Shown in pieces: positions 1-64,000 of a DNA stretch of 64,000 nt. The position numbers were made by a program, and so were the translations under genes. Under the pieces are notes generated by a model that worked only from the letters and a program-made list of their open reading frames with translations, had not been told where the DNA came from and ran no database searches. The stretch is from a virus. Taxonomy: Duplodnaviria > Heunggongvirae > Uroviricota > Caudoviricetes. Location of the stretch: the IMG/VR virus record IMGVR_UViG_3300028653_000011. One strand, 5' to 3'. Position 1 is the first letter of the stretch, and the number at the start of each line of letters is the position of its first letter.

Positions 1-255
1 TTGTCGGTGCAGCACCAGGCGACGATCGACGCAGATCAACAGAAGTTTGCCCTTGATGCCGCGGCGACGACGTGCACCACTGACAAGAGCATCTTTAGCG
101 CGCAATTGACCGACGCACAGAAGCAGAACTTGATCCTGCAGGACGAGCTGAAACGTGAGTCATCGGGCCCAGGCGCGGGCACGTGGATCGGTCTCGGCGT
201 CGTCGGTGGCATCGTCTTGACGGTAGTGACCGCGTTTGCCGTGGGTAAGCTCTGA
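1..255 (+). CDS. 3' end of a CDS entering from upstream; C-terminal hydrophobic anchor
   Basis: Open frame from window edge to the stop at 253-255. C-terminal TM-like stretch GLGVVGGIVLTVVTAFAVG. Confidence 0.4.
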   Translation: MSVQHQATIDADQQKFALDAAATTCTTDKSIFSAQLTDAQKQNLILQDELKRESSGPGAGTWIGLGVVGGIVLTVVTAFAVGKL

Positions 256-289
256 CCAGCGACCTATTTACGTTGGTGAGGTCGTGCTC

Positions 290-661
290 ATGGCAAACTT
301 GTGGATCAAGGATCAGAACGGCGATCCCAGCGTCATTGTGACACTGGTCGCGGTGTCGTTTGTGGCGGTGACAGTGGGCTACGTGATGTCGCTGTTCGAT
401 CGCATCGGCACCGTGTCAATCAGGCCCTTCGACGTCGCGGCGTGTGGTGCTTATTTCGGGAGCGTGATGGCCGCCTTCGTGGGCCACCATTGGGTGACGA
501 CCAAGTACGTCAATGGTCAAGTCGTCACCGATGATTCGTCGGCGACCGTCACCACGACCCAATCAGGCAGCGGTAACACCGTCACCGCGACGACTGATGC
601 AACGTCGACGACCACGACGATGCCAGTGGTGCCAGGAACGAACCCCGGGGTCACGACATGA
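290..661 (+). CDS. hypothetical membrane protein (2 predicted TM helices, Ser/Thr-rich tail)
   Basis: ATG at 290 in frame with track ORF 236-661. Hydrophobic segments, T/S-rich C-terminus. ATGA overlap with the next gene. Confidence 0.4.
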   Translation: MANLWIKDQNGDPSVIVTLVAVSFVAVTVGYVMSLFDRIGTVSIRPFDVAACGAYFGSVMAAFVGHHWVTTKYVNGQVVTDDSSATVTTTQSGSGNTVTATTDATSTTTTMPVVPGTNPGVTT

Positions 662-1878
662 CGACCATTGTCACCGACGATGCCCTCCGCGAGATGGTGC
701 GCGAGGCGCTCTCCAACACGGGCTGGAGCAATGAGGACGCGGGCACTGCCAACGTCAACCCCGTCGTCGATCCGTCGAAGGCCGTCACCGACCCCGTCAA
801 CCCCAACTTCACGCCCCAGACCAAGACCGAGTTCGGCGTGGCGATCAATCAGCTAGTCAGGAACCTACCCGACACCGAGATGCCCGACCTGTATGGCGTC
901 GTCAAGAAGACGCTAGACCAGCGGACTGAAAAAGAAGAGGAACAAGCGATGGACAAGAAGGCAGTGCAAGGCGGTTCTCAAGAAGCGATCGATGACGCGA
1001 AGAAGAAGCAAGCTGAGGCGGTGATCCGCAAGGCCGTCCGCAAGGCGCTGGCTGAGGCACCCCTGCCCCCGGTCAAGAAGATCCCGATCGGTGTCCACGG
1101 CAAGGAATTCAACGATCGGGTCGAGAAGACGAAGGCCGGCCTCAAGAAGTCGTTGGGCACCGCGGCGGCTGAACTCGATAAGCCTGATCAAGAAGAACTT
1201 GATGCTGTTGCCGATGGCGGTAATGCACCTAAAGGGCGCAACAAGGCATACAAGCCCGGCGCGTTGGGGGGCATGCAGGACGTCGGCGGTCAGTCGTTTG
1301 AGGCCATTGCCAAGGAAGTGGGCATGTCGGTCGCCGGTGCCAAGCAGCTCGTCGACAAGTCACTGGAGAAGTTGAAGTGGCTGCACCGCCTGCCCGAAGA
1401 CGACCGTGACATCCTGATCCTCACCACCGCCAACGACTACATCAAGACGCTGGCGCAATCGGGCGAGCTGACGGCGCCCGACATTCAACTGATGAAGGAT
1501 CACCCGACGATCGTCACCGAGCTCGACGGTTTCCGCGAGTACCTGCACGACGTCATCACCAAGGCACGCAAGCCCGGCAAGAAAATCAACGCCTTCGGCG
1601 AGGGGACGGAGGCCGACGAGGTCAACCAGCTCAACGAGTCCGCCAAACGCTTGGTCACCACGTTGACCGAGGTCATCGGCAACCACGCCGTGGTGCAGGC
1701 CGACATGCGAGGCCCCTACATCGTCATCGAGGGCCGCGAAGCCCGCCCGCGTGATCCCAACAAGACGCAGTACGCCGCGGGCACCAAGGTGCGAGTGCAC
1801 CAGCGGGCCAGCAAGGGCGTGTCATTGGTGGAGATGCCCAACGGGGAACAGTGGACATTGAAGGGCATGAAGGGCTAA
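658..1878 (+). CDS. hypothetical protein with leader-family N-terminus and a sigma-70 region-4-like HTH
   Basis: N-terminal DDALREMVREAL. Internal SFEAIAKEVGMSVAGAKQLVDKSLEKLKWL aligns to the sigma70 region 4.2 HTH. 406 aa. Confidence 0.55.
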   Translation: MTTIVTDDALREMVREALSNTGWSNEDAGTANVNPVVDPSKAVTDPVNPNFTPQTKTEFGVAINQLVRNLPDTEMPDLYGVVKKTLDQRTEKEEEQAMDKKAVQGGSQEAIDDAKKKQAEAVIRKAVRKALAEAPLPPVKKIPIGVHGKEFNDRVEKTKAGLKKSLGTAAAELDKPDQEELDAVADGGNAPKGRNKAYKPGALGGMQDVGGQSFEAIAKEVGMSVAGAKQLVDKSLEKLKWLHRLPEDDRDILILTTANDYIKTLAQSGELTAPDIQLMKDHPTIVTELDGFREYLHDVITKARKPGKKINAFGEGTEADEVNQLNESAKRLVTTLTEVIGNHAVVQADMRGPYIVIEGREARPRDPNKTQYAAGTKVRVHQRASKGVSLVEMPNGEQWTLKGMKG

Positions 1879-1884
1879 ACGTCG

Positions 1885-2664
1885 ATGGACGGCATCACCA
1901 CATACGTGCCCAAGACGCAGGTCGTCGCCGCGGTACAATACGAGGTGCGCCTGATGCAGCCTCGCGCCAACATCGAGGTCGCCAAGCAACTGTGCTATGA
2001 AGCGGCAGCGAAAGGCGCCAAGCTCATCGTGCTGCCCGAGCTGTGCATCGGTGGGGCGGTGCTGAGGTCGACCGACGAGGCTTTCAAGGTATGCCAAGAG
2101 GCCGACGGGTGGCAGACGCAGGCCTTCGTGCCCATTGCCCAACGATTCAACGCCCACATTGTCTTCGGCTACACCCAGTGGTGTGAGGGCAAGTTCTACA
2201 ACTCGGCGGCGATGGTAGGACCGACAGGGTTGGTGGGTAACTGGCAGAAGCACAATCTTTTCGGCGGGGATAATTTGTGGGCGCAGCCAAGCGAACAAAC
2301 ACCACCCATCGTGCTGACCCCCGCGGGGCGCGTCGGTGTGCTGATCTGCCGTGACATCAGCAATCGCATGCGCGAGAGCTACGTCTTTCACCAACCCGGC
2401 CAGCGTTTCTACAAGCCCGGTCAGGTCGACGTCATTGCGTGCCCGGTCAATTGGGGCAGCGCCTTCTCATATCCCGCCAGTGAGTGGGTCGAGTTGGTCG
2501 AGCAGACGCGTGCCAACGTCATCGTCAGCAATCGGGTGGGCGAGGAACGCGACATGAGTTACAAGGGAGGCTCGGCGATCATTGACCGTGACCGCCGCAT
2601 CTGGACCAATGGCTCCAGTTTCACAGAAGCTGCCGTCGTGGGCGGCGTGGTGGTGTTGGGATAA
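1885..2664 (+). CDS. carbon-nitrogen hydrolase (nitrilase superfamily)
   Basis: Glu-Lys-Cys triad context (LIVLPE ... GVLICRDI). Typical CN-hydrolase length and motifs. Confidence 0.75.
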   Translation: MDGITTYVPKTQVVAAVQYEVRLMQPRANIEVAKQLCYEAAAKGAKLIVLPELCIGGAVLRSTDEAFKVCQEADGWQTQAFVPIAQRFNAHIVFGYTQWCEGKFYNSAAMVGPTGLVGNWQKHNLFGGDNLWAQPSEQTPPIVLTPAGRVGVLICRDISNRMRESYVFHQPGQRFYKPGQVDVIACPVNWGSAFSYPASEWVELVEQTRANVIVSNRVGEERDMSYKGGSAIIDRDRRIWTNGSSFTEAAVVGGVVVLG

Positions 2665-2720
2665 TGTCTGGCGCCTGAGCGGGTTGATTAAGCCCAGTCA
2701 GGCCGTCAATTGATCACCGC

Positions 2721-3179
2721 TTACCGAATGTGGACTTCTAGCCCCTGAGGGCCTTGGTGTTCTTGTGAGTGCTGACGATCCTGCTCTTGGCGCTCTTTGT
2801 CCTGTCGCTCTTTGTTCTGTTGCTCTTGCCTCTGTTGCTCCTGAAAATTACGGTCTTGTTGGTCACGTTCTTCGTGCTTGCGCGCCTCTTCTTGTTTCTG
2901 CTTGTCTTCTTGCACACGCTGCTGGCGAAGGCGCTCTGCCTGATTCGCTTGTTCCTGACGTTGCAGCGCTTGCTGAGCGCTGTTCTGTCGCTGTTGTTCC
3001 TGCTGAATCTGAAACTGACGATCGCGCTCGGTGTTGTCAACAACAACGGGCGGGGCTGCGGGCACGAACACCTGTTGTGGCGCCGGCACGGGTTCTGGCG
3101 TGGACTGAACGGGTGCTTGGCAACCGATTGCCACCGTCGACGCGGCGAGTAGTGAGAATAGAATTGACTTGAATTGCAT
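2721..3179 (-). CDS. Q/E/R-rich low-complexity lipoprotein
   Basis: Signal peptide plus lipobox (LLAASTVAIGC), followed by a QQEQQRQ coiled low-complexity region. Convergent with upstream gene. Confidence 0.45.
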   Translation of the reverse strand: MQFKSILFSLLAASTVAIGCQAPVQSTPEPVPAPQQVFVPAAPPVVVDNTERDRQFQIQQEQQRQNSAQQALQRQEQANQAERLRQQRVQEDKQKQEEARKHEERDQQDRNFQEQQRQEQQNKERQDKERQEQDRQHSQEHQGPQGLEVHIR

Positions 3180-3310
3180 GGTATTTCTCCATCGAATACT
3201 TAACTAAGTCAGTGCAATTGTTGTCCACTAATTCGCGATGAATTCTCAATCCGAGCATGTTGAAAGTTCGCGGAATCCTGACAGCGTACCACCCACGACC
3301 TACTTAGATC

Positions 3311-3721
3311 ATGAGCCAGCTGTCTCGCCTTCACGAGAACTTCATTGCCCAGTCCGAGCGACCCATGGACTTCGGTCGGTTACCCATCACTGCGCAGCAG
3401 GCCCAGTCCCCCGTGGTGCCCATGGATCGGTGGCAGGCGATCGACGGTGCCCTGCACAAGACGTACCGCTTTCGGGAATCCGAGCACCGCAACGAGTTCA
3501 TCGTCTCGTGGTTGGCCTACGAGCACCAGACGCAGCACCACGCCCGTTTGACCCTCGACGAGGGTGAGGTCAGCCTCCGCCTCCAGACCCGCGACACCCA
3601 GCGCATCACTGAACTCGATAAGGAAGCGGCTCGCTATGCCGACGTGTTGTACAAGGACCTCGTCTCGCGCCCAACTACGGTGACGTCGTCGGGTGATGAC
3701 CAAGACGCTGACACGTTGTAG
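3311..3721 (+). CDS. pterin-4a-carbinolamine dehydratase (PCD/DCoH)-like protein
   Basis: W..IDGAL.KTYRF ... EHQTQHHA ... VSLRLQTRD pattern matches the PCD fold signature (HHP replaced by HHA). Confidence 0.5.
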   Translation: MSQLSRLHENFIAQSERPMDFGRLPITAQQAQSPVVPMDRWQAIDGALHKTYRFRESEHRNEFIVSWLAYEHQTQHHARLTLDEGEVSLRLQTRDTQRITELDKEAARYADVLYKDLVSRPTTVTSSGDDQDADTL

Positions 3722-4159: not shown

Positions 4160-5230
4160 ATGAGTGGCATGGTACCTCGCACGGGTGAAGAGACGCTGAT
4201 CGACATGTCGACGACGGAAGATGACTGCATGGACAGCATGGACCTACAATCAATTGTCGATCGAAACATGGACATTGCCGTCCGGGACAATGGTTACACC
4301 GAGCTTGCCAGCATGTCTCCCGAAAACGCTGCCATTGACTTGTGTACCTATTCACAAGAACTTGAAAACTTTGACATCGACGACGTTGCAGCTTGTGTTA
4401 GTGTCTGGCGAGCGAGTCACAAGCAACTTGAGGATGCCAACCCGCCCATCGACATGTCGATGACGGAAGAGGATGATATAGACACCGAACGCTACGAAGC
4501 GACCGTCACCGTCGCTAAACCCGACGAGGCAGTGAAGAGCGCCAAGCAGTGGAACCTGCGGGCGACGCAAGCGACGGTGGGTCATTCACACGACGTCACC
4601 TTTGAAGGCAACTACGGCGACCTGATGAACTTTATGACGGCATATCTATCGATGTCGAGTGCCGACGCCGATACCTACGTGGATCGGGTACCGGATCGAC
4701 AACAGGAGAGCAGACAGATGACGAAACCGATGAACGAGACGATGGATGATGACATGGACGAAGGCTCTGCCGACGATGAGAAGTCGCCACGTGGTGATGA
4801 GCACGAGTGGCTTGACTTGCCTGACGGCAAGGTCTCACGTGAAGACGACGACGATTTTGCCTCAGGTGGCGGTGCTCTCGCGCCTCACATGAGCGAGACG
4901 ATGGATGACGACGACATGGACGAGGCCGGGCCGCCCCCGCCTCCGTCAACTGCGCCCCCGACGTCAACGCCGCCTCCGACGACCACGCCGCCGACCAAAC
5001 CCTCGTCGACTCCACCACCGTCGAGCACGCCGTCGTCGACCCCACCTACGCCGACCCCTCCCATAAAGACTGAGTCGACAGAGTTCGATCTGTTCATGGA
5101 TCGCATTGTCATCGACGAGGCACGCGTCCGTAAGGTCGATCTCCCGGAGAACAACCCGATGCGGCGCCTGGCCAAGAACTACCAAGAACGACCCATGGGC
5201 CGCACCCGGTTCGTCAAGCGGGGCACGTGA
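4160..5230 (+). CDS. highly acidic hypothetical protein with Pro/Thr/Ser-rich linker
   Basis: Repeated MDDDMDE / DMSMTEEDD motifs and a PPPPSTAPPTSTPPPTTTPPTKPSSTPPPSSTPSSTPPTPTPP tract. Confidence 0.5.
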   Translation: MSGMVPRTGEETLIDMSTTEDDCMDSMDLQSIVDRNMDIAVRDNGYTELASMSPENAAIDLCTYSQELENFDIDDVAACVSVWRASHKQLEDANPPIDMSMTEEDDIDTERYEATVTVAKPDEAVKSAKQWNLRATQATVGHSHDVTFEGNYGDLMNFMTAYLSMSSADADTYVDRVPDRQQESRQMTKPMNETMDDDMDEGSADDEKSPRGDEHEWLDLPDGKVSREDDDDFASGGGALAPHMSETMDDDDMDEAGPPPPPSTAPPTSTPPPTTTPPTKPSSTPPPSSTPSSTPPTPTPPIKTESTEFDLFMDRIVIDEARVRKVDLPENNPMRRLAKNYQERPMGRTRFVKRGT

Positions 5231-43179: not shown

Positions 43180-43180
43180 A

Positions 43181-53908: not shown

Positions 53909-53936
53909 GAAGTGCTTTCGGACTGAGTGTAGCTCA

Positions 53937-57191: not shown

Positions 57192-57222
57192 TGCAATCTC
57201 CTTCGCAGCAGTTCCAACCTAT

Positions 57223-57258
57223 GATCTAACTGTACCACGGACGTGACCGAACTTACAC
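57223..57258 (-). promoter_or_regulatory. bipartite promoter-like element, copy 1 (GTGTAAG-N17-TACAGTTAGATC), reading leftwards
   Basis: Minus-strand sequence GTGTAAG ttcggtcacgtccgtgg TACAGTTAGATC, about 30 nt upstream of the SD of gene 56655-57191. Confidence 0.4.
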
Positions 57259-57444
57259 CCAGGAGTTGACGAGCGAACGTTCGAAGTGAGTCAGCATCCA
57301 CGTAGCATCCAGCACCTTGACCAAGTTGGCAGGGTCTTTCACCCCGTATGCTTGCCTCTTGACGCCATTGGGGAGCGTGAACTCGACCCGGTTGGTCGTG
57401 GGATCAATGACGGTAAAAGTTGTCGTTGCTGCTCTCTTCACCAT
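57253..57444 (-). CDS. small hypothetical protein
   Basis: 63 aa. Its ATG directly abuts copy 2 of the promoter-like element. Confidence 0.4.
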   Translation of the reverse strand: MVKRAATTTFTVIDPTTNRVEFTLPNGVKRQAYGVKDPANLVKVLDATWMLTHFERSLVNSWV

Positions 57445-57480
57445 GATCTAACTCTACCACGGTTCACCAGGGACTTACAC
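57445..57480 (-). promoter_or_regulatory. bipartite promoter-like element, copy 2 (GTGTAAG-N17-TAGAGTTAGATC), with upstream palindrome
   Basis: Minus strand GTGTAAG tccctggtgaaccgtgg TAGAGTTAGATC then ATG. Adjacent palindrome GAATTATAC-TCGAG-GTGTAATTC at 57488-57510. Confidence 0.45.
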
Positions 57481-57595
57481 CGTCCACGAATTATACTCGA
57501 GGTGTAATTCCTCGGGCCGCCCATGTGGGCGAGGTATGATACCCCGTCCCAGCACCCGTGACGACACGGTGGGCGGTCTGTGGGTGGTGGTTCCG

Positions 57596-57868
57596 TCACC
57601 AGGTGGGCCTGGCATACTGTCGGGTGGGCATGTCATCCCAGTCGTCCGGGGCACCCACGGGATGCGTGGTCGAACGTGACAGGACGTCACGGGAGACGCT
57701 TGGTGCGTTCCTGACGGCGTCTCTTCGCGCATCGTCGAGGAGGATCGCCAGTGAACCCGCGATGGCGGTGACTTCGGCCTCTGACTTGCCGTCATCGAGG
57801 CCCGTCTGGTAGATCCACAGGTGGGACAGCGCAAGGGTGCGAACATCGTGACGATTGTTCTTCATCAT
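57596..57868 (-). CDS. small protein, SHLW paralog 2
   Basis: MMKNNRHDVRTLALSHLWIYQTGLDD. A degenerate copy of the promoter element lies at 57869-57905. Confidence 0.4.
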   Translation of the reverse strand: MMKNNRHDVRTLALSHLWIYQTGLDDGKSEAEVTAIAGSLAILLDDARRDAVRNAPSVSRDVLSRSTTHPVGAPDDWDDMPTRQYARPTW

Positions 57869-57934
57869 GAATGTACAGTACCACACTTGACCACGGCGCT
57901 TGCACTCTGCGCGGGAGGGTGGTACAATTGAAGC

Positions 57935-58126
57935 ATGAGAACCACGTTGATCACATTCGTGGCACTCGTCATCACGTGTGTCATCGTCTCGTATGCCTGT
58001 GTCTACTCGCCGCCCAATTCCCTGCCCAACGGACACTCGCGGTGCGAGTACAACGCTGATTGTAGGCCACCCCAACAGTGTGACAGGGGCCTGTGTACCC
58101 TCGAACCCCATGACGTGGGGCGCTGA
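57935..58126 (+). CDS. small secreted Cys-rich protein
   Basis: Signal-anchor ITFVALVITCVIVSYA plus 6 Cys. GTGGTACAATTGAAGC (plus-orientation -10-like copy) immediately upstream. Confidence 0.4.
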   Translation: MRTTLITFVALVITCVIVSYACVYSPPNSLPNGHSRCEYNADCRPPQQCDRGLCTLEPHDVGR

Positions 58127-58517
58127 TCACGTGCGCTCACTGAAGTGCGGGGGCGTTGACGTCTACGTAGACAGCTATTACACCCGTGGCACAGGCAGCA
58201 CCTTCATCGGTGGTAACTTCTCGCTCGACAGTGCGATTGACTATGCTCGCCGCTCGCTTGAACTCCTATGGGGACCCAATCGTCACAGCGTCGTGGTGCC
58301 GCCCAAGGTGACAGCAGGCGGGCGCATTCCACAGCGCACGTTGATGATGTGGCTGCACTCCGACGAGCGGCCCATGGAACACCCAGGCGACGATGGATCA
58401 CACCTGTTCCTCATCTGGTTTGCTGACGATGATCCCATCGATGCACTGCAGGACGCGGTGCGGCACCTCGATGGCATGGGTGGCTGGTGGCCACACGCGA
58501 AGGGTTACGTGCTATGA
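58110..58517 (+). CDS. hypothetical protein
   Basis: Internal ATG of track ORF 57978-58517, overlapping the upstream stop. 135 aa. Confidence 0.4.
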   Translation: MTWGADHVRSLKCGGVDVYVDSYYTRGTGSTFIGGNFSLDSAIDYARRSLELLWGPNRHSVVVPPKVTAGGRIPQRTLMMWLHSDERPMEHPGDDGSHLFLIWFADDDPIDALQDAVRHLDGMGGWWPHAKGYVL

Positions 58518-58708
58518 GCACCGGCGATAGGTTGAGACAACTGGCGATGGCGTGGCGCAAACAAGTGGCTAGCGATGCGTTGAGTCACGTGGGTAGCAAT
58601 AGCGAGATCCGCCGGGCGAGGGGCGAACGCCTGCTGATGTGCGCAGGCGAACTTGAGGCGCTGGCGAGAGAAGTCGACAAGGCAGTCACGTCAACCGATT
58701 GCTCCTGA
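58514..58708 (+). CDS. small hypothetical protein
   Basis: ATGA-coupled. 64 aa. Confidence 0.3.
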   Translation: MSTGDRLRQLAMAWRKQVASDALSHVGSNSEIRRARGERLLMCAGELEALAREVDKAVTSTDCS

Positions 58709-58961
58709 TGTAGCAGGTGCGGCCTACACACACGATCTGGCAATACGAGTGGTGTACCCCCGACATGGTGATGACTGCCAACACTAGCGCTAGTTCACCA
58801 TTGCACCACACGCTGCGCGCCACGACTCCCGCGCCGTATCCTACAGTATAGAACGGAAACGGGCGGGTGTAGCCCCAGCCCTTGGCCACGTACAGTTCCC
58901 CGGGTTTGCGGATCAAGTCAACGTCAGGGGTATTGAGTTCAGTGGGCATGCACGTCCTCAA
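58686..58961 (-). CDS. PGD-family small protein (array 2, member 1)
   Basis: RKPGELYVAKGWGY ... GVVARSV ... LALVLAVI. Confidence 0.4.
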   Translation of the reverse strand: MRTCMPTELNTPDVDLIRKPGELYVAKGWGYTRPFPFYTVGYGAGVVARSVWCNGELALVLAVITMSGVHHSYCQIVCVGRTCYIRSNRLT

Positions 58962-59247
58962 AGAATTGGTGATAGCCCCAACCCAGCTTGCCTGTCGGTG
59001 TCAACACCAACACCTCGAGCGTGCCATTGGAGTTCACCGCGACGGCGACAGCTAACACCACTTTGAGTGGCTCTATGCGATCGATGATTGGGTTGGCACT
59101 GAGTGCAGAGATGCCTATGCGCGCGCTGACGTTGACATAAGAGTCCTGATCAGGCAACCTGCTGCGTATGCGAACCAGCATGCCTGGGAGAATGCGGCCA
59201 TGCGGCGCCATCACCTCACCAACCACTTCAACACCCCGATGTACCAT
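58939..59247 (-). CDS. PGD-family small protein (array 2, member 2)
   Basis: Internal ATG. ILPGMLVRIRS ... VVLAVAVAV ... VLVLTPTGKLGWGY. Confidence 0.45.
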   Translation of the reverse strand: MVHRGVEVVGEVMAPHGRILPGMLVRIRSRLPDQDSYVNVSARIGISALSANPIIDRIEPLKVVLAVAVAVNSNGTLEVLVLTPTGKLGWGYHQFFEDVHAH

Positions 59248-59516
59248 GCTTGGCGAAAGTCGCAGGTCCAGTACCAGTAGGGGCTGGTGCACCCGCCGCC
59301 CAAGTATTCTCGACCGTGACCCATAATTTTGCCGCGCCCGTCCTTGACCCATGACTCATTGCTGGTGAGGGTGCGGTCACATGCCGGGCACGTCAATTCT
59401 GTGTTGATGAAGTACGTCATCTCTGCACCGTGCGCACGTTCTTGCTCCATACCCAACCCAGCGTGTTCTTCGACGTCAAGATCAACACTTCTTCCGGCGG
59501 GATGCGAGGCTGACAA
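59211..59516 (-). CDS. small Cys-rich protein (zinc-ribbon-like)
   Basis: CPACDRT ... GGGCTSPYWYWTCD. 101 aa. Confidence 0.35.
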   Translation of the reverse strand: MSASHPAGRSVDLDVEEHAGLGMEQERAHGAEMTYFINTELTCPACDRTLTSNESWVKDGRGKIMGHGREYLGGGCTSPYWYWTCDFRQAWYIGVLKWLVR

Positions 59517-59683
59517 ACGTTGATGACGAGCGCGATGTCACTTGCGTGCAGGAAGCCGACGCCAAGATTGTCCTCCGTTCGCATGCCCGGATACTGCGTC
59601 ATGCAACACCGATAGTCGTAGTCATACCCAACCAGCAGGGTGACGAGTGAGCCGGGCGTGATCACGGGCGGTGAAGGTTGCAC
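59417..59683 (-). CDS. PGD-family small protein (array 2, member 3)
   Basis: ITPGSLVTLLVG ... ALVINVCQ ... LILTSKNTLGWVW. Confidence 0.5.
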   Translation of the reverse strand: MQPSPPVITPGSLVTLLVGYDYDYRCCMTQYPGMRTEDNLGVGFLHASDIALVINVCQPRIPPEEVLILTSKNTLGWVWSKNVRTVQR

Positions 59684-59976
59684 TGATCACGGGGAATGTC
59701 GCAGTTGCAATTGCCGGGAGCGACGCGCCGCCTGAACAGCTTCCAGATGCGCTCCTCCTCGTGATCGACCTGTGGTTCACCCACCACGACGGCGAGCTCA
59801 ACGTTCTCAATTGGTTCACCATCGATGATTTCAAAGCGATTGCGATTCCAATACCCAGGCACGTCGACGAGCGTGTAGACGCGCGTGGCACCATCATCTT
59901 CGAGGACGCTGTAGACGTGACCCTCGGTCAGCTTGTCGGAGGCCAACCCACTGACATCAATGCACTTGACCTTCAT
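59662..59976 (-). CDS. small hypothetical protein (possibly a distant family member)
   Basis: 104 aa. HVYSVLEDDG ... VYTLVDVPGYW. Confidence 0.35.
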   Translation of the reverse strand: MKVKCIDVSGLASDKLTEGHVYSVLEDDGATRVYTLVDVPGYWNRNRFEIIDGEPIENVELAVVVGEPQVDHEEERIWKLFRRRVAPGNCNCDIPRDQCNLHRP

Positions 59977-60013
59977 GGTTCAATCCTATGCCAATTGCAG
60001 GGCACTTTGCACC

Positions 60014-60292
60014 TCACACCGGACACAACTTGCGCGCATCGATCCACCCCAAGATCCCACCCACCATGACCAGCGTTTCAGGACGCCATGCTACGTCTGG
60101 CTCAACGTAGATGATGAAGGCAACATCGATGTCTGGTAACATTTCGTAGAGAACAGGATTGTCGCCGTGAACCACGCCCCTTTTCGGAGTGACGCGTTTG
60201 ATGCCCTCCGTTCGGCTAGTGACAAAGGTGCCGGGCACAAGGCGAGTAGTGCTCATTTCGACACCACGTTGAGCCATGATTGACTCATCCAA
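60014..60292 (-). CDS. PGD-family small protein (array 2, member 5)
   Basis: LVPGTFVTSRT ... AFIIYVEPD ... LVMVGGILGWI. Confidence 0.5.
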   Translation of the reverse strand: MDESIMAQRGVEMSTTRLVPGTFVTSRTEGIKRVTPKRGVVHGDNPVLYEMLPDIDVAFIIYVEPDVAWRPETLVMVGGILGWIDARKLCPV

Positions 60293-60546
60293 CCTACCCT
60301 GTTCAACGCTGACACGTAGACGATGACCTCGAGAGTATATGAGTCCGACGCACCTAGAATGAGCACCAACGAGCCGAGCGCGATCGCCGTGGGGATGTTA
60401 CCGTAATCACTGTCACTGATCGTGCCACGTGGCCACAACTGACACCACACGCGCGTCACTGCTAGTTGGCCGATCAACGCGACGGATACAGTGTTCACCG
60501 GCGCTCCAAGTGCTCGACGCGTTGAATCACCGACGTGTAGATCCAA
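60253..60546 (-). CDS. PGD-family small protein (array 2, member 6)
   Basis: ALGSLVLILGAS ... EVIVYVSALNRVGWM. Confidence 0.45.
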   Translation of the reverse strand: MDLHVGDSTRRALGAPVNTVSVALIGQLAVTRVWCQLWPRGTISDSDYGNIPTAIALGSLVLILGASDSYTLEVIVYVSALNRVGWMSQSWLNVVSK

Positions 60547-60752
60547 CCCACCGCGCTAGTTAGTGACTCAATGACCTGTGCCCGTCGGTCGCCGCCGGTA
60601 TCGAACGTAATCGCAATGACAAGACCAAAGTTGAAGTCACACAGGCGTCGTCTATGTCCCATATCACCATAGACGCCCGGACGCCAAGAAGACGCGTGAA
60701 GTGATGTCGGGTACCAGATCAGGTCACCAGGATGGAAAATGCGGGTCACCAC
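60495..60752 (-). CDS. PGD-family small protein (array 2, member 7)
   Basis: FHPGDLIWYPTS ... GLVIAITFD ... VIESLTSAVGWIY. Confidence 0.5.
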   Translation of the reverse strand: MVTRIFHPGDLIWYPTSLHASSWRPGVYGDMGHRRRLCDFNFGLVIAITFDTGGDRRAQVIESLTSAVGWIYTSVIQRVEHLERR

Positions 60753-60756
60753 AATC

Positions 60757-61074
60757 TTATCCTACACCGACAACTATTTCGGTTACACCGTGCCAGTGGG
60801 TGCCACGTCCCATCACCTCTTCACTGATTTCGTGAATGTACAGACGACCGCGCATTAATAGGATCAATTCGATTACGTCGTCGGACCGCAATCTTCGCCT
60901 GCTGATGATCATGGCAAGGGTGTCTGCGTTGAACACCGTGAACCTGCCCAGCGTGAAGTGATTGAGAGGTCGATTATCAACGAGTCGTGCATGCATCATC
61001 GTCAGGGAAGTGATGAGGTCACCCGGTTCAAACTTCATGGGGTGATCACCTTGATGAAGGTGCTGTTGATCCAA
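60757..61074 (-). CDS. PGD-family small protein (array 2, member 8)
   Basis: FEPGDLITSLTMM ... LAMIISRR ... ELILLMRGRLYI. Confidence 0.5.
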   Translation of the reverse strand: MDQQHLHQGDHPMKFEPGDLITSLTMMHARLVDNRPLNHFTLGRFTVFNADTLAMIISRRRLRSDDVIELILLMRGRLYIHEISEEVMGRGTHWHGVTEIVVGVG

Positions 61075-61340
61075 CCCATGCCCTGCGCGGTGACGATGAA
61101 GACATAATGTCCCATCACCGTCGCCATAACTGTGCTAGCGACGATTCCGACGTAGAGCGAATCAATGTACGTGTAATGACTGTCGTACACGTGGCCGGAT
61201 ACATCCGTATGAACGATGATGCACACGTCGCCCGGATAGTATGCGTGTCCCATGATGCGCGGGGGCAGTGCCGTCCACGAATAACCTGGGTGCCTGAAGG
61301 TCACCAGCGCGCCCGGTGTGGCCTGAGCGGGGGTGATCAT
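61035..61340 (-). CDS. PGD-family small protein (array 2, member 9)
   Basis: Internal ATG with ATGA overlap. ATPGALVTFRHPG ... VCIIVHTD ... FIVTAQGMGWI. Confidence 0.45.
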   Translation of the reverse strand: MITPAQATPGALVTFRHPGYSWTALPPRIMGHAYYPGDVCIIVHTDVSGHVYDSHYTYIDSLYVGIVASTVMATVMGHYVFIVTAQGMGWINSTFIKVITP

Positions 61341-61609
61341 GCGCGCACCAGGTCGGTGGGAAACACCCACCCCACGCGATGGCCGAGCAAGACACAGATC
61401 CATTGAGTGCCTGGTGAAAAGATGTGGGATACGTCCTTCACGTAATTGATGACGAGGCACCGTTTACCACGGCGATACCATCGGAGGCCACTACTATTTT
61501 CCCCGGGATGAGTGATCCTGACTGCAACATCCTCGCCGTGTCGCCGCGCGTGCGACGACCCATGGAGGCAACACAGCGTCCCGGGCAGGAATTGCTCCTC
61601 ATGGGTCAT
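61337..61609 (-). CDS. PGD-family small protein (array 2, member 10)
   Basis: FLPGTLCCLHGS ... CLVINYVKD ... ICVLLGHRVGWVF. Confidence 0.5.
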   Translation of the reverse strand: MTHEEQFLPGTLCCLHGSSHARRHGEDVAVRITHPGENSSGLRWYRRGKRCLVINYVKDVSHIFSPGTQWICVLLGHRVGWVFPTDLVRA

Positions 61610-61662
61610 CGAGTTCTTTTCATCCTATCACACCATGGCGTCGACTTGCACGGTACACTCAA

Positions 61663-61938
61663 TCAGAGCGGTTCCAGGTCAGTAAGAAAGACCCAACCCA
61701 GCGAGGCATCGGCAAATAACAAGCAGACCCATCTCGTGGATGACAGGCCAAACCGCCAACTGTTGATGACCAGACACACCACGCCAGCAGCATACCAGAC
61801 GACGACGCGTTCCATCGGCAGGCCTTGGTGGGTGCCCAGATCGGGGTGCACGATCCGAACGGCAATCTTGTCACCATAGTCTCTTCGGAGGCACGCTAGT
61901 GTGCCGGGCAGCAACTTCTCCTCGTTGGTCATTGTCAT
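61663..61938 (-). CDS. PGD-family small protein (array 2, member 11; close paralog of member 10)
   Basis: Internal ATG with ATGA overlap. LLPGTLACLRRD ... CLVINSWRF ... VCLLFADASLGWVF. Confidence 0.5.
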   Translation of the reverse strand: MTMTNEEKLLPGTLACLRRDYGDKIAVRIVHPDLGTHQGLPMERVVVWYAAGVVCLVINSWRFGLSSTRWVCLLFADASLGWVFLTDLEPL

Positions 61939-62150
61939 CTGTTTTCGAGGAAGTACACTGAAACCCAAACCAAGCGCTCCGCGTGCAGGACGAGAACATA
62001 GTCCAGGAGGGCGTCCCATTGCTGAACAATGAGGCACGCGTCACCTGCCTCGTGTGCGTGTCCCAGCGCCAACGTCTTGCGATCTTTCCACCCAATCCAC
62101 GCGTGCATGAAGACTGCCAGCATTCCGGGAATGACGTCATGCGGCGTCAT
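61935..62150 (-). CDS. PGD-family small protein (array 2, member 12)
   Basis: VIPGMLAVFMHA ... ACLIVQQWD ... LVLHAERLVWV. Confidence 0.5.
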   Translation of the reverse strand: MTPHDVIPGMLAVFMHAWIGWKDRKTLALGHAHEAGDACLIVQQWDALLDYVLVLHAERLVWVSVYFLENR

Positions 62151-62422
62151 GCCAACACCAAGTCACTGTCGAAGATCCACCCAACAATGCCGTCTGACGT
62201 TAGCACACAGATCCACCAGATGTTGGCTGACCACACGTAGTCAATGATCAAACCAGCAGTGCCACACCGGGCATATATCACCAGTGATGGTACCTCATCT
62301 TTGGGGTGCCTAGTGCGGATGCTGACCGTTACCAACTTCCTCTTATTGTAGAGAAAGATCAACGTCCCACGTGCATGGATCGTAGGCTGCACAAAGGGTG
62401 CTGGGGTTGGTGTGGAGATCAT
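62147..62422 (-). CDS. PGD-family small protein (array 2, member 13)
   Basis: ARGTLIFLYNK ... GLIIDYVWS ... ICVLTSDGIVGWIF. Confidence 0.5.
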   Translation of the reverse strand: MISTPTPAPFVQPTIHARGTLIFLYNKRKLVTVSIRTRHPKDEVPSLVIYARCGTAGLIIDYVWSANIWWICVLTSDGIVGWIFDSDLVLA

Positions 62423-62694
62423 GGAACATCACTCGTCTTCGCTATGCGAACGGCGCGGAAGATCGCTCCGATCACGTGGCTGCCTTCGAGCGCGCGAGAT
62501 AACCCATTACAGTTCAACCACGTCAGGATGCCTTCGGCGCGGGCGACCAACAGGTTAACGCCACCGATGAGCACGAAGCGATGCTCGACGGATGACCATA
62601 TCTCTTCATGCGTGACAACCTCATTGCCGTTACGGGTGTACACCCACTTGATGAGGTCGCCGGGCTTCAATTCACTCGGCGTCATCAGGTGCAA
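62419..62694 (-). CDS. PGD-family small protein (array 2, member 14)
   Basis: LKPGDLIKWVYT ... FVLIGGVN ... GILTWLN. Confidence 0.5.
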   Translation of the reverse strand: MHLMTPSELKPGDLIKWVYTRNGNEVVTHEEIWSSVEHRFVLIGGVNLLVARAEGILTWLNCNGLSRALEGSHVIGAIFRAVRIAKTSDVP

Positions 62695-63463
62695 CCCAAT
62701 CCTGACCCTTGGTGAATGAACCGCGGTTCTCGATGCCCGTCTTGGTCAAGGCGACGACGAACGTTTTCCCGCTACAACCCCACCTGTTCTTGCTGACCTC
62801 GAACAACAGGCCCCCAAACGTCGGGCTCTTCTTGTTCTCGTCGTACGACAGGTGGGCATGGACGTCGATGGCGTGGCGGATGGTGTTCTTGCCCGCGAAT
62901 TCTCCACCCTTGGTACATTGTCCCACGAAGATGCAGAAGGCGAAGTTCTGCTGGCACCAGGCGACCAACATCTCAGTGCAGCGCACCGGGGTGTTGCCCG
63001 TCGTCCCACCGTCCTTGTACTTCATGTCGTTCAACGTCTGCAGTGAATCTTGCAGTAGGACGATGACCTTGCCCGGGTTGGCCTTCTTGACGCCGTCGAG
63101 GAACTTCAACAGCTTAGGCAGGTTAGTCTCCTCGGCGACCATGAAGTCGTGCTTCAACTGCAACCGTTCAACGGCCAGCTTGGCCTGAAACAGGCTCTCT
63201 TCGCCCGTGTTGTAGACGACGATGTGACCCGCACCCGTCAGCGTCGACGCCAACTGGCGCACCAGCGTTGACTTGCCGGTGCCCGGGCCACCCGTCAGCA
63301 TCAGCGTCGTCGTCGCGGTGAAGCCACCTTCGCCGCCCAACGCCTCGTCGATCCAATCGAGGCCCGTCGAGTGCTTGACCCGCAGTTCGGGTGGCACCGC
63401 GATGGTGCTGATCTTCGTCCCAGCCTTGAAACCACGCCCAACGTGCAGATTCATCTCGGCCAT
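62672..63463 (-). CDS. RecA-superfamily ATPase (RadA/Sms- or Sak4-like)
   Basis: GLDWIDEALGGEGGF ... LMLTGGPGTGKSTL (Walker A), with a Walker B-like hydrophobic stretch ending in D. Confidence 0.6.
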   Translation of the reverse strand: MAEMNLHVGRGFKAGTKISTIAVPPELRVKHSTGLDWIDEALGGEGGFTATTTLMLTGGPGTGKSTLVRQLASTLTGAGHIVVYNTGEESLFQAKLAVERLQLKHDFMVAEETNLPKLLKFLDGVKKANPGKVIVLLQDSLQTLNDMKYKDGGTTGNTPVRCTEMLVAWCQQNFAFCIFVGQCTKGGEFAGKNTIRHAIDVHAHLSYDENKKSPTFGGLLFEVSKNRWGCSGKTFVVALTKTGIENRGSFTKGQDWVAPDDAE

Positions 63464-63487
63464 TGTCTCGGCATCTCCGTCGGTTGA

Positions 63488-63523
63488 GATCTAACTCTAC
63501 CAGGTTCGTGGTGGAACTTGCAC
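63488..63523 (-). promoter_or_regulatory. bipartite promoter-like element, copy 3
   Basis: Minus strand GTGCAAG ttccaccacgaacctgg TAGAGTTAGATC, 24 nt upstream of the RecA-like ATG. Confidence 0.4.
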
Positions 63524-63525
63524 TA

Positions 63526-63639
63526 TCACCGAGCCAGGATGAACATGCCCAGTGCGACCCACGAGGCGCCACAGACGACGAGGGCAGCGCTCCAGAACAT
63601 CACCATCTCGGCCCGACTTGCCTTTGCTTCCTTCATCAT
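63526..63639 (-). CDS. 37-aa TM micro-protein
   Basis: MMKEAKASRAEMVMFWSAALVVCGASWVALGMFILAR. Its ATG abuts promoter-element copy 4. Confidence 0.3.
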   Translation of the reverse strand: MMKEAKASRAEMVMFWSAALVVCGASWVALGMFILAR

Positions 63640-63675
63640 GATCTAATCCTACCACGGTCGCCGGCGAACTTGCAC
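63640..63675 (-). promoter_or_regulatory. bipartite promoter-like element, copy 4, with upstream palindrome
   Basis: Minus strand GTGCAAG ttcgccggcgaccgtgg TAGGATTAGATC. Palindrome GAATTATAC-CCCGGG-TGTAATCC at 63683-63705. Confidence 0.4.
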
Positions 63676-63849
63676 TGTCCCCGAATTATACCCCGGGTGT
63701 AATCCTAGCCTGCCTGTCCCGGGACACCCCCGGACCCACCCAGGTGCGGCCCGACGGCCCACAGGACGGCCCAGGTCACCTTGCCACGGGCGGGAGGCAG
63801 TTCCACCCCTTCGATTATTGTGGGTGCCCGGTGACAAGGCACGTGGACG

Positions 63850-63885
63850 GTGTAAGTCCCCGGTGAATCGTGGTAGAGTTAGATC
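63850..63885 (+). promoter_or_regulatory. bipartite promoter-like element, copy 5, plus orientation (strand switch)
   Basis: Plus strand GTGTAAG tccccggtgaatcgtgg TAGAGTTAGATC, immediately followed by ATG 63886. Near-identical inverted copy of the 57445-57480 element. Confidence 0.45.
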
Positions 63886-64000
63886 ATGGTAGCAAATAGG
63901 TCTCGCCTCAACGTGCCCATCCACAGTGCTCGCAAGTTCAGGTGGAGCAACGATTTCACCGGCAGTGCCGAGGTGTCTGACTTCAGCCGAACAATCAGCT
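63886..64000 (+). CDS. 5' end of a plus-strand CDS running off the window
   Basis: ATG at 63886 directly after the promoter-like element. Open to the window end (MVANRSRLNVPIHSARKFRW...). Confidence 0.3.
   Translation, partial: MVANRSRLNVPIHSARKFRWSNDFTGSAEVSDFSRTIS

Follow-up and report, generated by a model that had tools for sequence, protein, structure and literature searches.

The stretch of viral DNA analysed here (64,000 nt; hereafter the window) is very probably an internal accessory region of a complete, circularly permuted genome of ~359.2 kb, that of a huge (jumbo), uncultured tailed phage whose contractile-tail genes are of the T4-superfamily type. The observations behind this reading are the gene content, the identity of the contig, the tail and replication genes on that same contig, and synteny with relatives.

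Genome context and gene organisation

The whole window corresponds to approximately positions 86,001–150,000 of ENA contig k141_2233850 (359,321 bp). Identity between the window and the loci taken from this contig is 100% except for one 10-nt indel, a tandem copy-number variant (GGGTGTGTAA, 51022–51051) of which the window has one copy more. Proteins identical to those of the window are encoded both on this contig and on a 359,340-bp JGI contig (Ga0265319_1000002) with a different start point, and the coordinate offsets between the two resolve into a single circle of 359,211 bp, the assemblies being mutual circular permutations. The genome was found again in at least ten samples, where the longest of the contigs in the 0.2–1 Mb range was 361,059 bp. 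It is therefore a complete, circularly permuted metagenomic genome of ~359.2 kb from an uncultured phage, and its gene content was read for ~151 of the 359 kb, including the flanks of the window.

These assemblies bear directly on whether the DNA is part of a bacterial chromosome, as an integrated giant prophage or genomic island, which we regard as very unlikely. In its favour are the many bacterial-type genes (aceBA, groEL, infA, map and dnaE) and the existence of temperate huge phages, but the contigs from at least ten independent samples all end at ~359–361 kb with none exceeding 1 Mb, the two assemblies are permutations of a single unit, and integrase, attachment junction, rRNA, tRNA and ribosomal-protein operon are all absent from the parts read. 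Likewise, neither the flanks nor the ~151 kb of genome contained housekeeping operons, integration junctions or core genes of nucleocytoplasmic large DNA viruses (NCLDV), any of which would have spoken against the original prediction of a huge-phage segment.

The window holds 129 deposited gene calls and ~10 plausible uncalled ORFs (~130–140 genes), slightly fewer than the ~150 short ORFs first estimated, although many are indeed short (median product 104 aa; 60 genes <100 aa; coding density 87%). Pfam domains were found in ~25 of the 129 products, leaving roughly 80% unannotated, in keeping with the earlier description of the genes as mostly ORFans. The ATGA coupling reported at the outset is also evident, with 25 four-base start/stop overlaps (17 ATGA, 8 GTGA) and seven one-base overlaps among 117 same-strand junctions. 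GTG serves as start codon in 17% of genes. Five strict lipobox candidates (starting at 24694, 31535, 40525, 43624 and 48746) and a looser one (28128) together make up ~4% of window genes, confirming the presence of lipoproteins. The gene organisation is thus prokaryote-type, as judged from coding density, four-base overlaps, GTG starts and lipoboxes. The lipoboxes had prompted the proposal of a diderm host but do not establish one, since monoderms have lipoproteins too and the analysis yielded no signal pointing to a host. Searches of the window found no tRNA genes, no Rfam families at gathering score and no ribosomal or core bacterial operons among the Pfam matches, as had been stated.

Tail and replication genes on the contig and in relatives

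Several phage hallmark genes had been expected in the window, which was not borne out: no capsid, portal, terminase or tail families occur within the 64 kb, and its phage-typical genes are accessory ones. These comprise an endolysin of the phage lysozyme type (21856–22395, +; Pfam Phage_lysozyme 5.2e-33, phrog_7 endolysin 1.4e-41), a T4 endoV-type Pyr_excise protein (25669–26139; Pfam), a 5'-3' exonuclease of the FEN/RNase H type (19584–20420, +; Pfam 5_3_exonuc_N 8.8e-18), a GIY-YIG homing endonuclease (46031–46894, −) and a VWA-domain protein (30254–31045, +; phrog_7371 3.2e-58) of a family common in large actinophages and also present in myxophage Mx1 (tblastn 37–44%). Two PHROG matches (phrog_246 8.7e-28; phrog_314 1.7e-26) belong to the segment 45267–46894, which holds this endonuclease and a PPP-family (ApaH/NinI-like) metallophosphatase (45267–46046, −; Pfam Metallophos 2.7e-14). 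A lone 'portal' PHROG match in the window is attributed, from member counts given without member names, to the two NUDIX proteins rather than to a portal, because two members match, as with four NUDIX PHROG families.

The contig does carry tail genes outside the window: matches were obtained for a tail tube (phrog_4542, 1.4e-27), for the T4-type hub of the baseplate (both Pfam PF12322 and phrog_150, 1e-17), for a wedge subunit of the baseplate (phrog_7145, 3.5e-8) and, weakly, for a tape measure (phrog_1533, 5.8e-5). This contig also encodes a homing endonuclease. The replication genes of this genome are DnaE, RNase_T, a PolA fragment, RecA_N (a RecA/UvsX-like recombinase), FEN and DnaB_C, with RNR, ThyX, ThyA, TK, TMK and dCMP deaminase for nucleotide metabolism. 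As to the hallmarks sought along the full contig, DnaE provided the polymerase, while no genes for capsid, portal, terminase or prohead protease were seen in the ~151 of 359 kb read. No tail sheath was found in the part of this genome that was read, the locus stopping just before the expected position, and we infer its presence from synteny with relatives.

In those relatives, whose DnaE is 55–73% identical, two sheaths (phrog_23; 7e-48 and 3e-56), the tube (2e-28), an adaptor (1e-11) and the hub occur in conserved order, with DnaE and sheath co-occurring on contigs of 369, 309, 151 and 140 kb. The adaptor, of the head-tail type (phrog_211, 1e-11), adjoins the sheaths, as does a protein of the head-and-packaging category annotated as 'virion structural protein' (phrog_10356), and one relative encodes a gp32-like SSB. 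The syntenic IMG/VR relatives are long contigs (110–369 kb), the GC content of sheath-bearing loci ranges from 31 to 66%, and one IMG/VR fragment has a DnaE 100% identical to that of this phage. Judged by these sequence comparisons, the phage belongs to a clade of uncultured IMG/VR phages that is widespread and uses a bacterial-type DnaE for replication. Cultured phages are all distant (≤38% identity for tail proteins; 26–32% for DnaE).

Since no capsid, portal or terminase gene came to light, since DnaE and DnaB are plasmid- or chromosome-like replication genes, and since tube, baseplate and sheath by themselves also occur in tailocins, a non-viral extrachromosomal element (a megaplasmid or phage-plasmid hybrid with a captured tailocin or contractile-injection-system module) was considered. 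We give it very little credence in view of the relatives' head-tail adaptor and phrog_10356 protein beside the sheaths, the UvsX-like recombinase, the relative's gp32-like SSB, the endolysin and homing endonucleases, an extensive set of nucleotide-metabolism genes as is typical for large lytic myoviruses, the cataloguing of fragments and relatives in IMG/VR, and the absence of plasmid partition and conjugation families among the Pfam matches. From the tail and replication genes that this contig carries, together with the relatives' sheaths and head-tail adaptor, we therefore conclude that this is a contractile-tail-type huge phage, neither a giant eukaryotic virus nor a bacterial island; the ~359-kb genome and its syntenic relatives likewise uphold the initial huge-phage reading.

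A mosaic of cellular-type genes

All 12 cellular-type genes named in the original prediction are present at the domain level, and the accessory genes do form a mosaic of bacterial and eukaryote-like types. A group I chaperonin GroEL (37465–39126, +; Pfam Cpn60_TCP1 1.9e-69, phrog_5725 5.9e-146) shares at most 46% identity with GroELs in phage records, and no GroES was detected adjoining it. Translation-related genes encode an IF-1-like S1 domain protein (43103–43375, +; Pfam eIF-1a 1.6e-23) and methionine aminopeptidase (MAP, M24; 51865–52623, −; Pfam Peptidase_M24 6.4e-47). Malate synthase (aceB; 12696–14231, +; Pfam MS_TIM-barrel 1e-102) and isocitrate lyase (aceA; 14247–15629, +; Pfam ICL 1.2e-101) form a pair (12696–15629) assigned by sequence to the glyoxylate shunt. 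Many bacterial genomes have aceB and aceA likewise adjacent, with identities to the window proteins of 50–59% and 60–65%, and huge phages with this pair have been described before.

A DNA-repair glycosylase cluster (25669–29991) begins with the Pyr_excise gene and continues with a UDPGP nucleotidyltransferase (26306–27370, +; recognised at the Pfam domain level, with no PDB sequence match and no confirmation of the UAP1-like identity first proposed), a 139-aa MBD4-like glycosylase (27720–28139, +; PDB MBD4 domain, E 1.5e-27), a Trypsin_2 lipoprotein protease (28128–29003, −; Pfam domain) bearing the looser lipobox, and a zincless Nei (29137–29991, +). The best full-length PDB matches of Nei are 3a45/3a46/3vk7, which we take to be mimivirus Nei1, and no CxxC...CxxC zinc finger is visible in the PDB-match alignment. 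Together with a TANGO2/NRDE family protein (33807–34571, +; Pfam 2.9e-29, PDB TANGO2 homolog 4e-11), the MBD4-like protein and Nei retain the eukaryote flavour first ascribed to them, whereas the C1 cysteine peptidase (Peptidase_C1; 22395–23255, +) looks bacterial-type, its best PDB match being the cysteine protease 3ois (E 4e-25), presumably bacterial xylellain. The endolysin and this peptidase form a lysis-type pair (21856–23255, +). A nucleocytoplasmic large DNA virus, or giant virus of eukaryotes, would account for the mimivirus-like Nei, the glycosylase whose best matches are mammalian MBD4, TANGO2, the C1 peptidase and the glyoxylate-shunt genes, but is effectively refuted by the phage tail tube and T4-type baseplate hub and wedge on the same contig, a polymerase that is bacterial DnaE and not PolB, bacterial-type GroEL, IF-1 and MAP, four-base overlaps, GTG starts and lipoboxes indicative of bacterial expression, contractile sheaths in relatives, and the absence of NCLDV core families from the Pfam matches listed in ~151 kb. 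In favour of the giant-virus reading, isocitrate lyase and malate synthase also appear in a paper on giant-virus metabolism (PMC9270025).

The huge-phage window further encodes a pterin-4a-carbinolamine dehydratase (PCD/DCoH) family protein (3311–3721, +; Pfam Pterin_4a 2.7e-11), which is uninformative as to a eukaryotic flavour, a carbon-nitrogen hydrolase of the nitrilase superfamily (1885–2664, +; Pfam CN_hydrolase 6.8e-25), and a cytidylyltransferase/NMNAT-like protein (9372–10004, −; phrog_3462/3041/395 at ~1e-4) adjoined by a NUDIX hydrolase (10042–10497, +; Pfam NUDIX). A 422-aa nucleotidyltransferase (6467–7735, +) has a ligase-type KxDG motif (EKLDGIN) and is probably an RNA/DNA-ligase-like enzyme; it has no PDB or PHROG matches, and its homologs in Microcystis phage Mel-JY01 and in uncultured phages of 462–484 kb are 26–29% identical. 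There are also an SPFH/Band_7 lipoprotein (31535–32491, +; Pfam Band_7 1.7e-18; lipobox …FNAGC), an AAA+ ATPase (35516–36787, +; Pfam AAA 9.8e-15, phrog_7485) and a RadA/Sms-like RecA-fold ATPase (62672–63463, −; PDB RadA 1.7e-15, phrog_26214).

Lineage-specific leader and SH3-like proteins

Two side findings are new and concern lineage-specific systems. The first is an N-terminal leader of ~14 residues ending in [I/L/V]-x-E (consensus M-K-x-T-x-x-x-L-[KR]-x-h-[ILV]-x-E), carried by 18 of 249 proteins (~7%; ~1 expected, P 2e-16), with the Glu at residue 14 in ten of the 18. Among the ORFs of relatives, 30 of 542 carry the tag where 4.5 would be expected. Two neighbouring small proteins (16575–17155, +) have near-identical tags (MKTTVGKLKQFITE|A and MKTTVGKLRNLCAE|A), a 406-aa ORFan with a weak sigma-70 region-4-like HTH (658–1878, +) begins with …ALREMVRE|A, and a second NUDIX hydrolase (24079–24651, +) with …LLRQLIRE|V; further tagged window genes start at 7732, 10777, 21557, 23252, 42913, 43947 and 48962. 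The tag resembles the T4 capsid-targeting sequence (CTS), the T4 rules used for this comparison being those of PMC9026906, and no match emerged when the short tag was compared with annotated phages by tblastn. By analogy, we infer that the leader may be a T4-CTS-like propeptide for prohead targeting, which a gp21-type protease would cut after the Glu, although a head-specific role is not obvious because one tagged gene of the relatives lies within the tail module.

The second is a family of small stand-alone SH3-like paralogs, 60–130 aa long and at least 37 in number, which lie in tandem arrays and were identified by iterative HMM over 83 kb. The window has 23 HMM-confirmed members: three in a first block with an 'xPGD(L/I)V' motif (39899–41372; members 39899–40258, +; 40265–40528, −; 41052–41372, −), one at 10494–10736, and 19 in the main tandem array (51006–62685, −), which extends to ~70 kb in window coordinates and is interspersed with MAP and a few unrelated genes. 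The motif was recognised by eye only in genes near the first block (39476, 39682, 41326 and 41893) and in small ORFs at 49634–50980. An AlphaFold model of the family is all-beta (pLDDT 90) and scores TM 0.55–0.66 against SH3/SH3b folds. These proteins may be binding modules that have diversified to interact with the host or to counter its defences.

Going by family membership, the region may be a host-takeover and auxiliary block that keeps the infected cell productive. GroEL, IF-1 and MAP would act in protein folding and translation, and aceBA, probably captured as a unit, would direct carbon flow via the glyoxylate shunt. The two NUDIX, NMNAT-like and nitrilase-family enzymes may serve nucleotide- and NAD-related chemistry, and the three glycosylases (endoV-type, MBD4-like and zincless Nei) may repair the phage genome by base excision. 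The endolysin, C1 peptidase and five or six lipoproteins may have envelope and lysis functions. The T4-CTS-like leader and the SH3-like arrays would overlie this block. Huge tailed phages are already known; it is the N-terminal tag and the family of tiny SH3-like proteins that merit follow-up.

Genome unit and phage identity

Two long metagenomic contigs encode a GroEL identical to that of the window, ENA ERZ27245402 k141_2233850 (359,321 bp; hereafter the ENA contig) and JGI 3300028563 Ga0265319_1000002 (359,340 bp). An exact-GroEL look-up returned contigs of 0.2–1 Mb in at least ten sample blocks and none above 1 Mb; the longest contig carrying proteins of this phage is 361,059 bp. The start points of the ENA and JGI contigs differ, with an offset of −122,758 at GroEL and +236,453 at the RNR gene, values that only a circular or circularly permuted unit of 359,211 bp can explain, and each contig has a terminal overlap of ~110–130 bp. 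Because the two contigs are permutations of one such unit, found across sample blocks, we regard this as a complete, recurrent and free-standing genome. As a single replicon of at least 200 kb it falls within the range of huge (jumbo) tailed phages. A metagenome scan returned a 2.3-kb fragment and relatives, the full-length JGI contig not being among its results. The window corresponds to positions ~86,001–150,000 of the ENA contig, except for one extra 10-nt tandem copy at 51,022–51,051. The copy number of the repeated unit, GGGTGTGTAA, is a population polymorphism, and the additional copy puts the 3′ end of a small minus-strand gene (51006–51353) into another frame.

The original prediction described the window as part of a huge phage with a mosaic of bacterial and eukaryote-like accessory genes, a reading that the 359-kb unit and the tail genes on the same contig support. 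Its statement that the window itself holds several phage hallmark genes was not borne out, as none of the 128 products compared with PHROGs and Pfam could be placed in a capsid, portal, terminase or tail family. The phage-typical genes in the window are accessory ones, comprising an endolysin, a T4 endoV-type glycosylase, a FEN, a GIY-YIG homing endonuclease and a VWA protein of family phrog_7371, and its large ORFans have no PHROG family. One PHROG family annotated as portal was matched by two window proteins, just as four NUDIX families were, and this match was attributed to the two NUDIX proteins. An HK97-fold major capsid protein, portal and large terminase were likewise not found within the 151 kb of the genome read. 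The proposed search of the contig for a DNA polymerase did succeed, with a 1,178-aa DnaE (Pol III alpha; PHP and DNA_pol3_alpha domains) located upstream of the window as the replicative polymerase, accompanied in the genome by DnaB and RecA/UvsX. Also upstream of the window are genes for an Fe-SOD, dCMP deaminase, CCA-adding-type nucleotidyltransferase, thymidine kinase, ThyA, an epimerase, a DnaJ-WGR protein, a DnaQ-like exonuclease and a TnsA-like nuclease.

Positions 9.3–50.1 kb of the ENA contig were read via protein identifiers from exact-sequence clusters of the IMG/VR fragment L067. Proteins of this fragment recur on contigs of up to 359,348 or 361,059 bp, which places L067 in this phage population; blastn found no overlap between it and L039, an 11.8-kb IMG/VR fragment with a DnaE 100% identical to that of this phage. 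Within 9.3–29.6 kb lie a 162-aa tail tube protein (phrog_4542, 1.4e-27), a 297-aa baseplate hub (Pfam PF12322 T4_baseplate; phrog_150, 1e-17), a 1,293-aa tape-measure-like protein (phrog_1533, 5.8e-5) and a 97-aa LysM wedge subunit (phrog_7145, 3.5e-8). Proteins of 1,072 and 973 aa follow the tape-measure-like protein in the 9.3–50.1 kb stretch, which further encodes an HNH homing endonuclease, a PolA fragment, RecA_N, a Vsr-like nuclease, FEN, DnaB_C, RNR, ThyX, TMK and MT-A70. Gene order throughout is collinear with that of a 369-kb relative, and judging from syntenic relatives the sheath is expected just past the stretch read; none of the IMG/VR sheath loci of similar GC matched the contigs of this phage. 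The tail and replication modules carry insertions of homing endonucleases (HNH and GIY-YIG) and of the Vsr-like nuclease, at 1828–3483 of contig locus L172, 5999–6799 of contig locus L170 and 46031–46894 of the window.

A chromosomal island or plasmid is very unlikely; the gene tables of the parts read showed no cellular core (rRNA or ribosomal-protein operons) and no chromosomal junction. A giant eukaryotic virus is excluded by the combined tail, replication and contig evidence, and no NCLDV core gene (B-family DNA polymerase, double-jelly-roll MCP, A32 ATPase, VLTF3 or D5 primase-helicase) was found among the Pfam and PHROG matches in the 151 kb.

Relatives and nearest cultured phages

Megablast of 25 kb against 50,697 phage records gave zero nucleotide matches, and there is no close sequenced relative among these records. 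When used as an IMG/VR probe GroEL recovered relatives at ≤46% identity only, and DnaE was the productive marker, identifying relatives with 55–73% identical DnaE on contigs of 110–369 kb, one of which (GC 47%) is syntenic with the present contig around DnaE. In the 369-kb relative, DnaE is preceded upstream by RNA-repair-like genes, then by DnaB, RNR, ThyX, TMK and a methyltransferase, and further upstream by FEN, dUTPase, a UvsX-like recombinase (phrog_97, 3e-68) and a gp32-like SSB. Its baseplate block comprises a hub (phrog_150, 1.8e-17), a LysM wedge (phrog_7145, 6e-8) and proteins of 992–1,249 aa. Past this block are two ~1,050-aa tail-sheath paralogs (phrog_23, 7e-48 and 3e-56), and the tail module is completed by a tail tube (phrog_4542, 2e-28) and a head-tail adaptor (phrog_211, 1e-11). 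A sheath search returned 56 IMG/VR loci with a GC content from 31 to 66%, and DnaE and sheath occur together on single contigs of 369, 309, 151 and 140 kb.

Two adjacent, diverged sheath paralogs of ~1,000–1,060 aa were present in all relatives examined (L075:1352–7796, L122, L125, L140 and L142), far longer than the PHROG sheath profile that they match (~500 aa). Such a double-sheath arrangement is unusual. Homing endonucleases are numerous around DnaE in the relatives (upstream regions of L040, L041, L046 and L053), and in another relative, L021, the DnaE region consists of three consecutive ORFs, possibly split by a homing-endonuclease-type insertion.

By tail proteins the nearest cultured phages are Microcystis phage Mel-JY01 (~38%), the Flavobacterium vB_FspM_immuto phages and Bacillus phage SP-15, beyond which further matches, which read as T4-like, occur in Escherichia, Klebsiella and Synechococcus phages. 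Mel-JY01 (190 kb), immuto (160 kb) and SP-15 (222 kb) carry homologous tube, hub and sheath genes in one block at 28–38% identity; Mel-JY01 also has a homolog of the 422-aa ligase-like protein of the window, and the immuto phages encode a GroEL 41.5% identical to that of the window. However, these genomes are smaller, described as about half the size or less of the ~359-kb unit, identity is low, and no close counterpart of the DnaE region was among the matches listed, the relationship not being at family level. Huge phages known from metagenomes (≥200 kb) resemble this one in that they too exceed 200 kb, lack sources other than metagenomes, consist mostly of unannotated genes and carry translation-related and metabolic accessory genes.

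Accessory gene content of the window

GC content is 56–60% over the whole window, in which no tRNA, tmRNA or Rfam family at gathering score was found. Gene calls deposited for identical metagenomic contigs, on which the gene counts rest, place 129 genes in the window at a coding density of 87%, with a median product of 104 aa and 60 genes of <100 aa. Same-strand junctions overlap by four bases in 25 of 117 cases (17 ATGA, 8 GTGA) and by one base in seven, and the gaps hold approximately ten further plausible small ORFs. A Pfam domain is present in only ~25 products, and lipobox candidates number five strict and one looser. A search for conserved intergenic promoter or terminator motifs found none. 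The small-ORF arrays run on downstream of the window to ~169 kb.

Several individual ORFs merit description. An uncalled ORF at 43624–43893 begins with a textbook lipoprotein signal (MKYVITALVAMTLVAC...) and looks more plausible as a gene than the deposited call it overlaps in a different frame (43706–43909). A 356-aa ORFan (4160–5230), for which no homolog was found among the phage records searched, combines strongly acidic Met/Asp-rich repeats (...ETMDDDMDE...) with a long Pro/Thr/Ser tract (PPPPSTAPPTSTPPPTTTPP...). A called 127-aa ORF at 2769–3310 is composed nearly entirely of Leu, Phe and Val (VLTILLLALFVLSLFVLLLL...), and no intergenic stretch in the window is richer in AT than the one after it (3153–3310, GC 0.42); the ORF could be a very hydrophobic membrane peptide, or else a regulatory region wrongly called as a gene.

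The cellular-type genes named in the original prediction are present at the domain level, both the bacterial-type ones (malate synthase, isocitrate lyase, GroEL, IF-1, M24 methionine aminopeptidase, Metallophos and Trypsin_2) and the remainder (Pterin_4a, Peptidase_C1, UDPGP, TANGO2, HhH-GPD and Fapy/H2TH). The eukaryotic flavour ascribed to some of them stands for three and fails for one. A 139-aa glycosylase aligns along its full length (residues 3–134) to the MBD4 catalytic domain (1.5e-27), the next-best family being an archaeal G-T mismatch enzyme at just 8e-3, and from this alignment the protein is assigned to the MBD4-type HhH-GPD family. The Nei protein aligns over its full length to PDB entries 3a45, 3a46 and 3vk7 (1e-29), which we take to be mimivirus Nei1; it has an N-terminal PEGPE and Pfam matches to Fapy_DNA_glyco (2.6e-12) and H2TH (2.3e-13), and its aligned C-terminal region contains a single Cys, the four-Cys zinc finger being absent, features that identify it by sequence as a zincless-finger (NEIL1-type) enzyme. 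Unlike the enzymes with which they were compared, both are bacteriophage-encoded. The TANGO2 protein matches a solved TANGO2 homolog (4e-11). The C1 peptidase is the case that fails, its nearest PDB entry being the cysteine protease 3ois (4e-25), presumably the bacterial xylellain. For the UDPGP protein, which may or may not be a UAP1/AGX-type UDP-GlcNAc pyrophosphorylase, there is the Pfam match, whereas no sequence in the PDB matched at 1e-5.

Three DNA glycosylases of different superfamilies, the T4 endoV-type Pyr_excise, the MBD4-like HhH-GPD and the zincless Nei, lie within 4.3 kb of each other (25669–29991), a cluster that might reflect base modification of the phage DNA or its proneness to damage. 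Relatives of some of these enzymes are best known from eukaryotes and giant viruses.

Malate synthase (12696–14231; Pfam 1e-102) and isocitrate lyase (14247–15629; 1.2e-101) are separated by 15 nt, an adjacent glyoxylate-shunt pair in a huge phage genome. Many bacterial operons have aceB and aceA in this order and at this spacing. Identities of 50–59% and 60–65% are spread over many phyla, and consequently carry no donor or host signal; assignment of a host or donor from isocitrate lyase, at 60–67% identity to many phyla, was uninformative. A 367-kb ‘Terriglobales’ contig, at first thought to be a possible mis-binned relative, proved to be an ordinary bacterial locus. The pair is already known in huge phages; according to a preprint on a huge-phage collection, adjacent isocitrate lyase and malate synthase genes occur in 20 huge phages, and those encoding malate synthase come only from marine, soil and plant-related habitats (bioRxiv 10.1101/2025.02.27.640493).

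Taken by gene content, the window appears to be an accessory and host-takeover block. Going by family membership, it would provide for proteostasis and translation (GroEL, an AAA+ ATPase, IF-1 and methionine aminopeptidase), carbon metabolism (aceB-aceA), nucleotide and NAD-related reactions (two NUDIX hydrolases, an NMNAT-like and a nitrilase-family enzyme), DNA repair (the endoV-type, MBD4-like and zincless Nei glycosylases, FEN and a RadA-like ATPase), nucleic-acid end-joining (the ligase-like enzyme) and functions in the envelope or lysis (endolysin, C1 peptidase, Band_7, the Trypsin_2 protease and other lipoproteins).

A shared N-terminal leader and an SH3-like paralog family

A number of otherwise unrelated proteins of this phage start alike, for example with MKTTVGKLKQFITE, MKTTLRRLKQVIRE or MRVRLGTLRRYLHE, each followed by A. 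The consensus of this N-terminal tag spans ~14 residues, M-K-x-T-x-x-x-L-[KR]-x-h-[ILV]-x-E. Scored as the pattern [LVI][KR]x[LIVMFY][LIVC]xE ending within the first 30 residues, it is present on 18 of 249 proteins in the 151 kb, compared with approximately one predicted by the internal rate (P 2e-16) and a mean of 0.6 (maximum 5) in shuffled N-termini, with Glu as residue 14 in ten of the 18. The tag is kept in relatives down to 36% GC, where 30 of 542 ORFs carry it versus 4.5 expected, a few being double-counted as the loci overlap. Tagged genes start in the window at 658, 7732, 10777, 16575, 16892, 21557, 23252, 24079, 42913, 43947 and 48962, and outside it at contig loci L019 (6114–7202, minus strand, and 17858) and L170 (2199, 12542, 12910, 13161 and 13510). 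Among the tagged products are several ORFans, alongside a NUDIX hydrolase, the DnaJ-WGR protein and a 406-aa protein that has a weak sigma region-4-like HTH. The DnaJ-WGR protein, 362 aa in length (L019:6114–7202, minus strand; ENA ~72.1–73.2 kb), joins the tag to a DnaJ (J) domain and a WGR domain, and has a conserved 581-aa homolog in the relative L021. No match to a 32-aa tagged N-terminus was found by tblastn against annotated phages, and the tag is not mentioned in the accessible portion of the huge-phage collection preprint (bioRxiv 10.1101/2025.02.27.640493).

A short leader on unrelated proteins that ends in L/I-x-E is also a feature of the T4 capsid-targeting sequence (CTS) of IPI-III and Alt, for which the first 10 residues of IPIII are enough for head incorporation and the protease gp21 cuts after L/I-x-E (PMC9026906). 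The carriers here are enzymes (NUDIX and the J-domain protein) as well as ORFans, T4 likewise having the tagged Alt. The present tag differs in being ~14 rather than 10 residues long and in having far more carriers (18 in 151 kb). Moreover, replication in this phage is DnaE-based, not built on a T4-like gp43 PolB, and neither a protease nor a scaffold was seen in the loci read, nor any cleavage of the tag. By analogy with T4, a propeptide that would target proteins to the prohead is the role we tentatively consider most likely, because the tail module is T4-superfamily-like. The head cargo would then include the NUDIX hydrolase, the J-domain protein and the sigma-region-4-like protein.

The second lineage-specific feature is a family of mini-proteins of 60–130 aa with the common pattern xPGD(L/I)V ... 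W ... GLVI ... VLV ... GW. Iterative HMM searches identified at least 37 members within 83 kb, of which 23 are in the window, mostly in minus-strand tandem arrays (10494–10736, 39899–41372 and 51006–62685), the family continuing to ~70 kb in window coordinates (contig loci L008/L173). An AlphaFold model of one member is confident and all-beta (pLDDT 90, pTM 0.79), and the structures ranked highest for it by Foldseek are SH3 or SH3b domains without exception, although the matches are weak (TM 0.55–0.66, E 3e-3 to 5e-2); the predicted fold is a five- to six-stranded SH3-like barrel. No Pfam or PHROG match was found for the family, and its eight matches among 5.8 billion proteins represent this population and a few short relative contigs. 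Jumbo Bacillus phage G, with ~35 zinc-ribbon copies (PMC7824862), is similar in having dozens of tandem, fast-diverging, small single-domain paralogs in one huge genome, but the predicted fold here is SH3-like instead of a zinc ribbon, and members occur nowhere beyond this population and a few close relatives in the proteins searched. The expansion is not mentioned in what is accessible of the huge-phage collection preprint (bioRxiv 10.1101/2025.02.27.640493). It is possible, if somewhat doubtful, that the tag is a clade-wide capsid-targeting leader that loads a broad modular cargo for injection, with the SH3-like arrays forming a second, rapidly diversifying host-interaction arsenal.

As an identity call, the result is ordinary, being another metagenomic huge phage, and its most conspicuous metabolic genes (aceBA) were described in such phages before. 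Its complete, recurrent genome, in a large clade without a cultured member and with a DnaE replisome and duplicated sheaths, makes a good reference for that clade. The repair trio (endoV-type, MBD4-like and zincless Nei) raises the question of gene flow between phages and giant viruses, or of modified bases in the phage DNA. It is the tag and the SH3-like expansion that add to an otherwise familiar kind of phage, and both lead to experiments, the tag providing a concrete prediction of which proteins get packaged and injected. If this prediction is true, the capsid-targeting principle of T4 would extend to distant huge phages and supply a sequence rule for mining injected effectors, and the injected proteome of an uncultured phage would be readable straight from its genome sequence.
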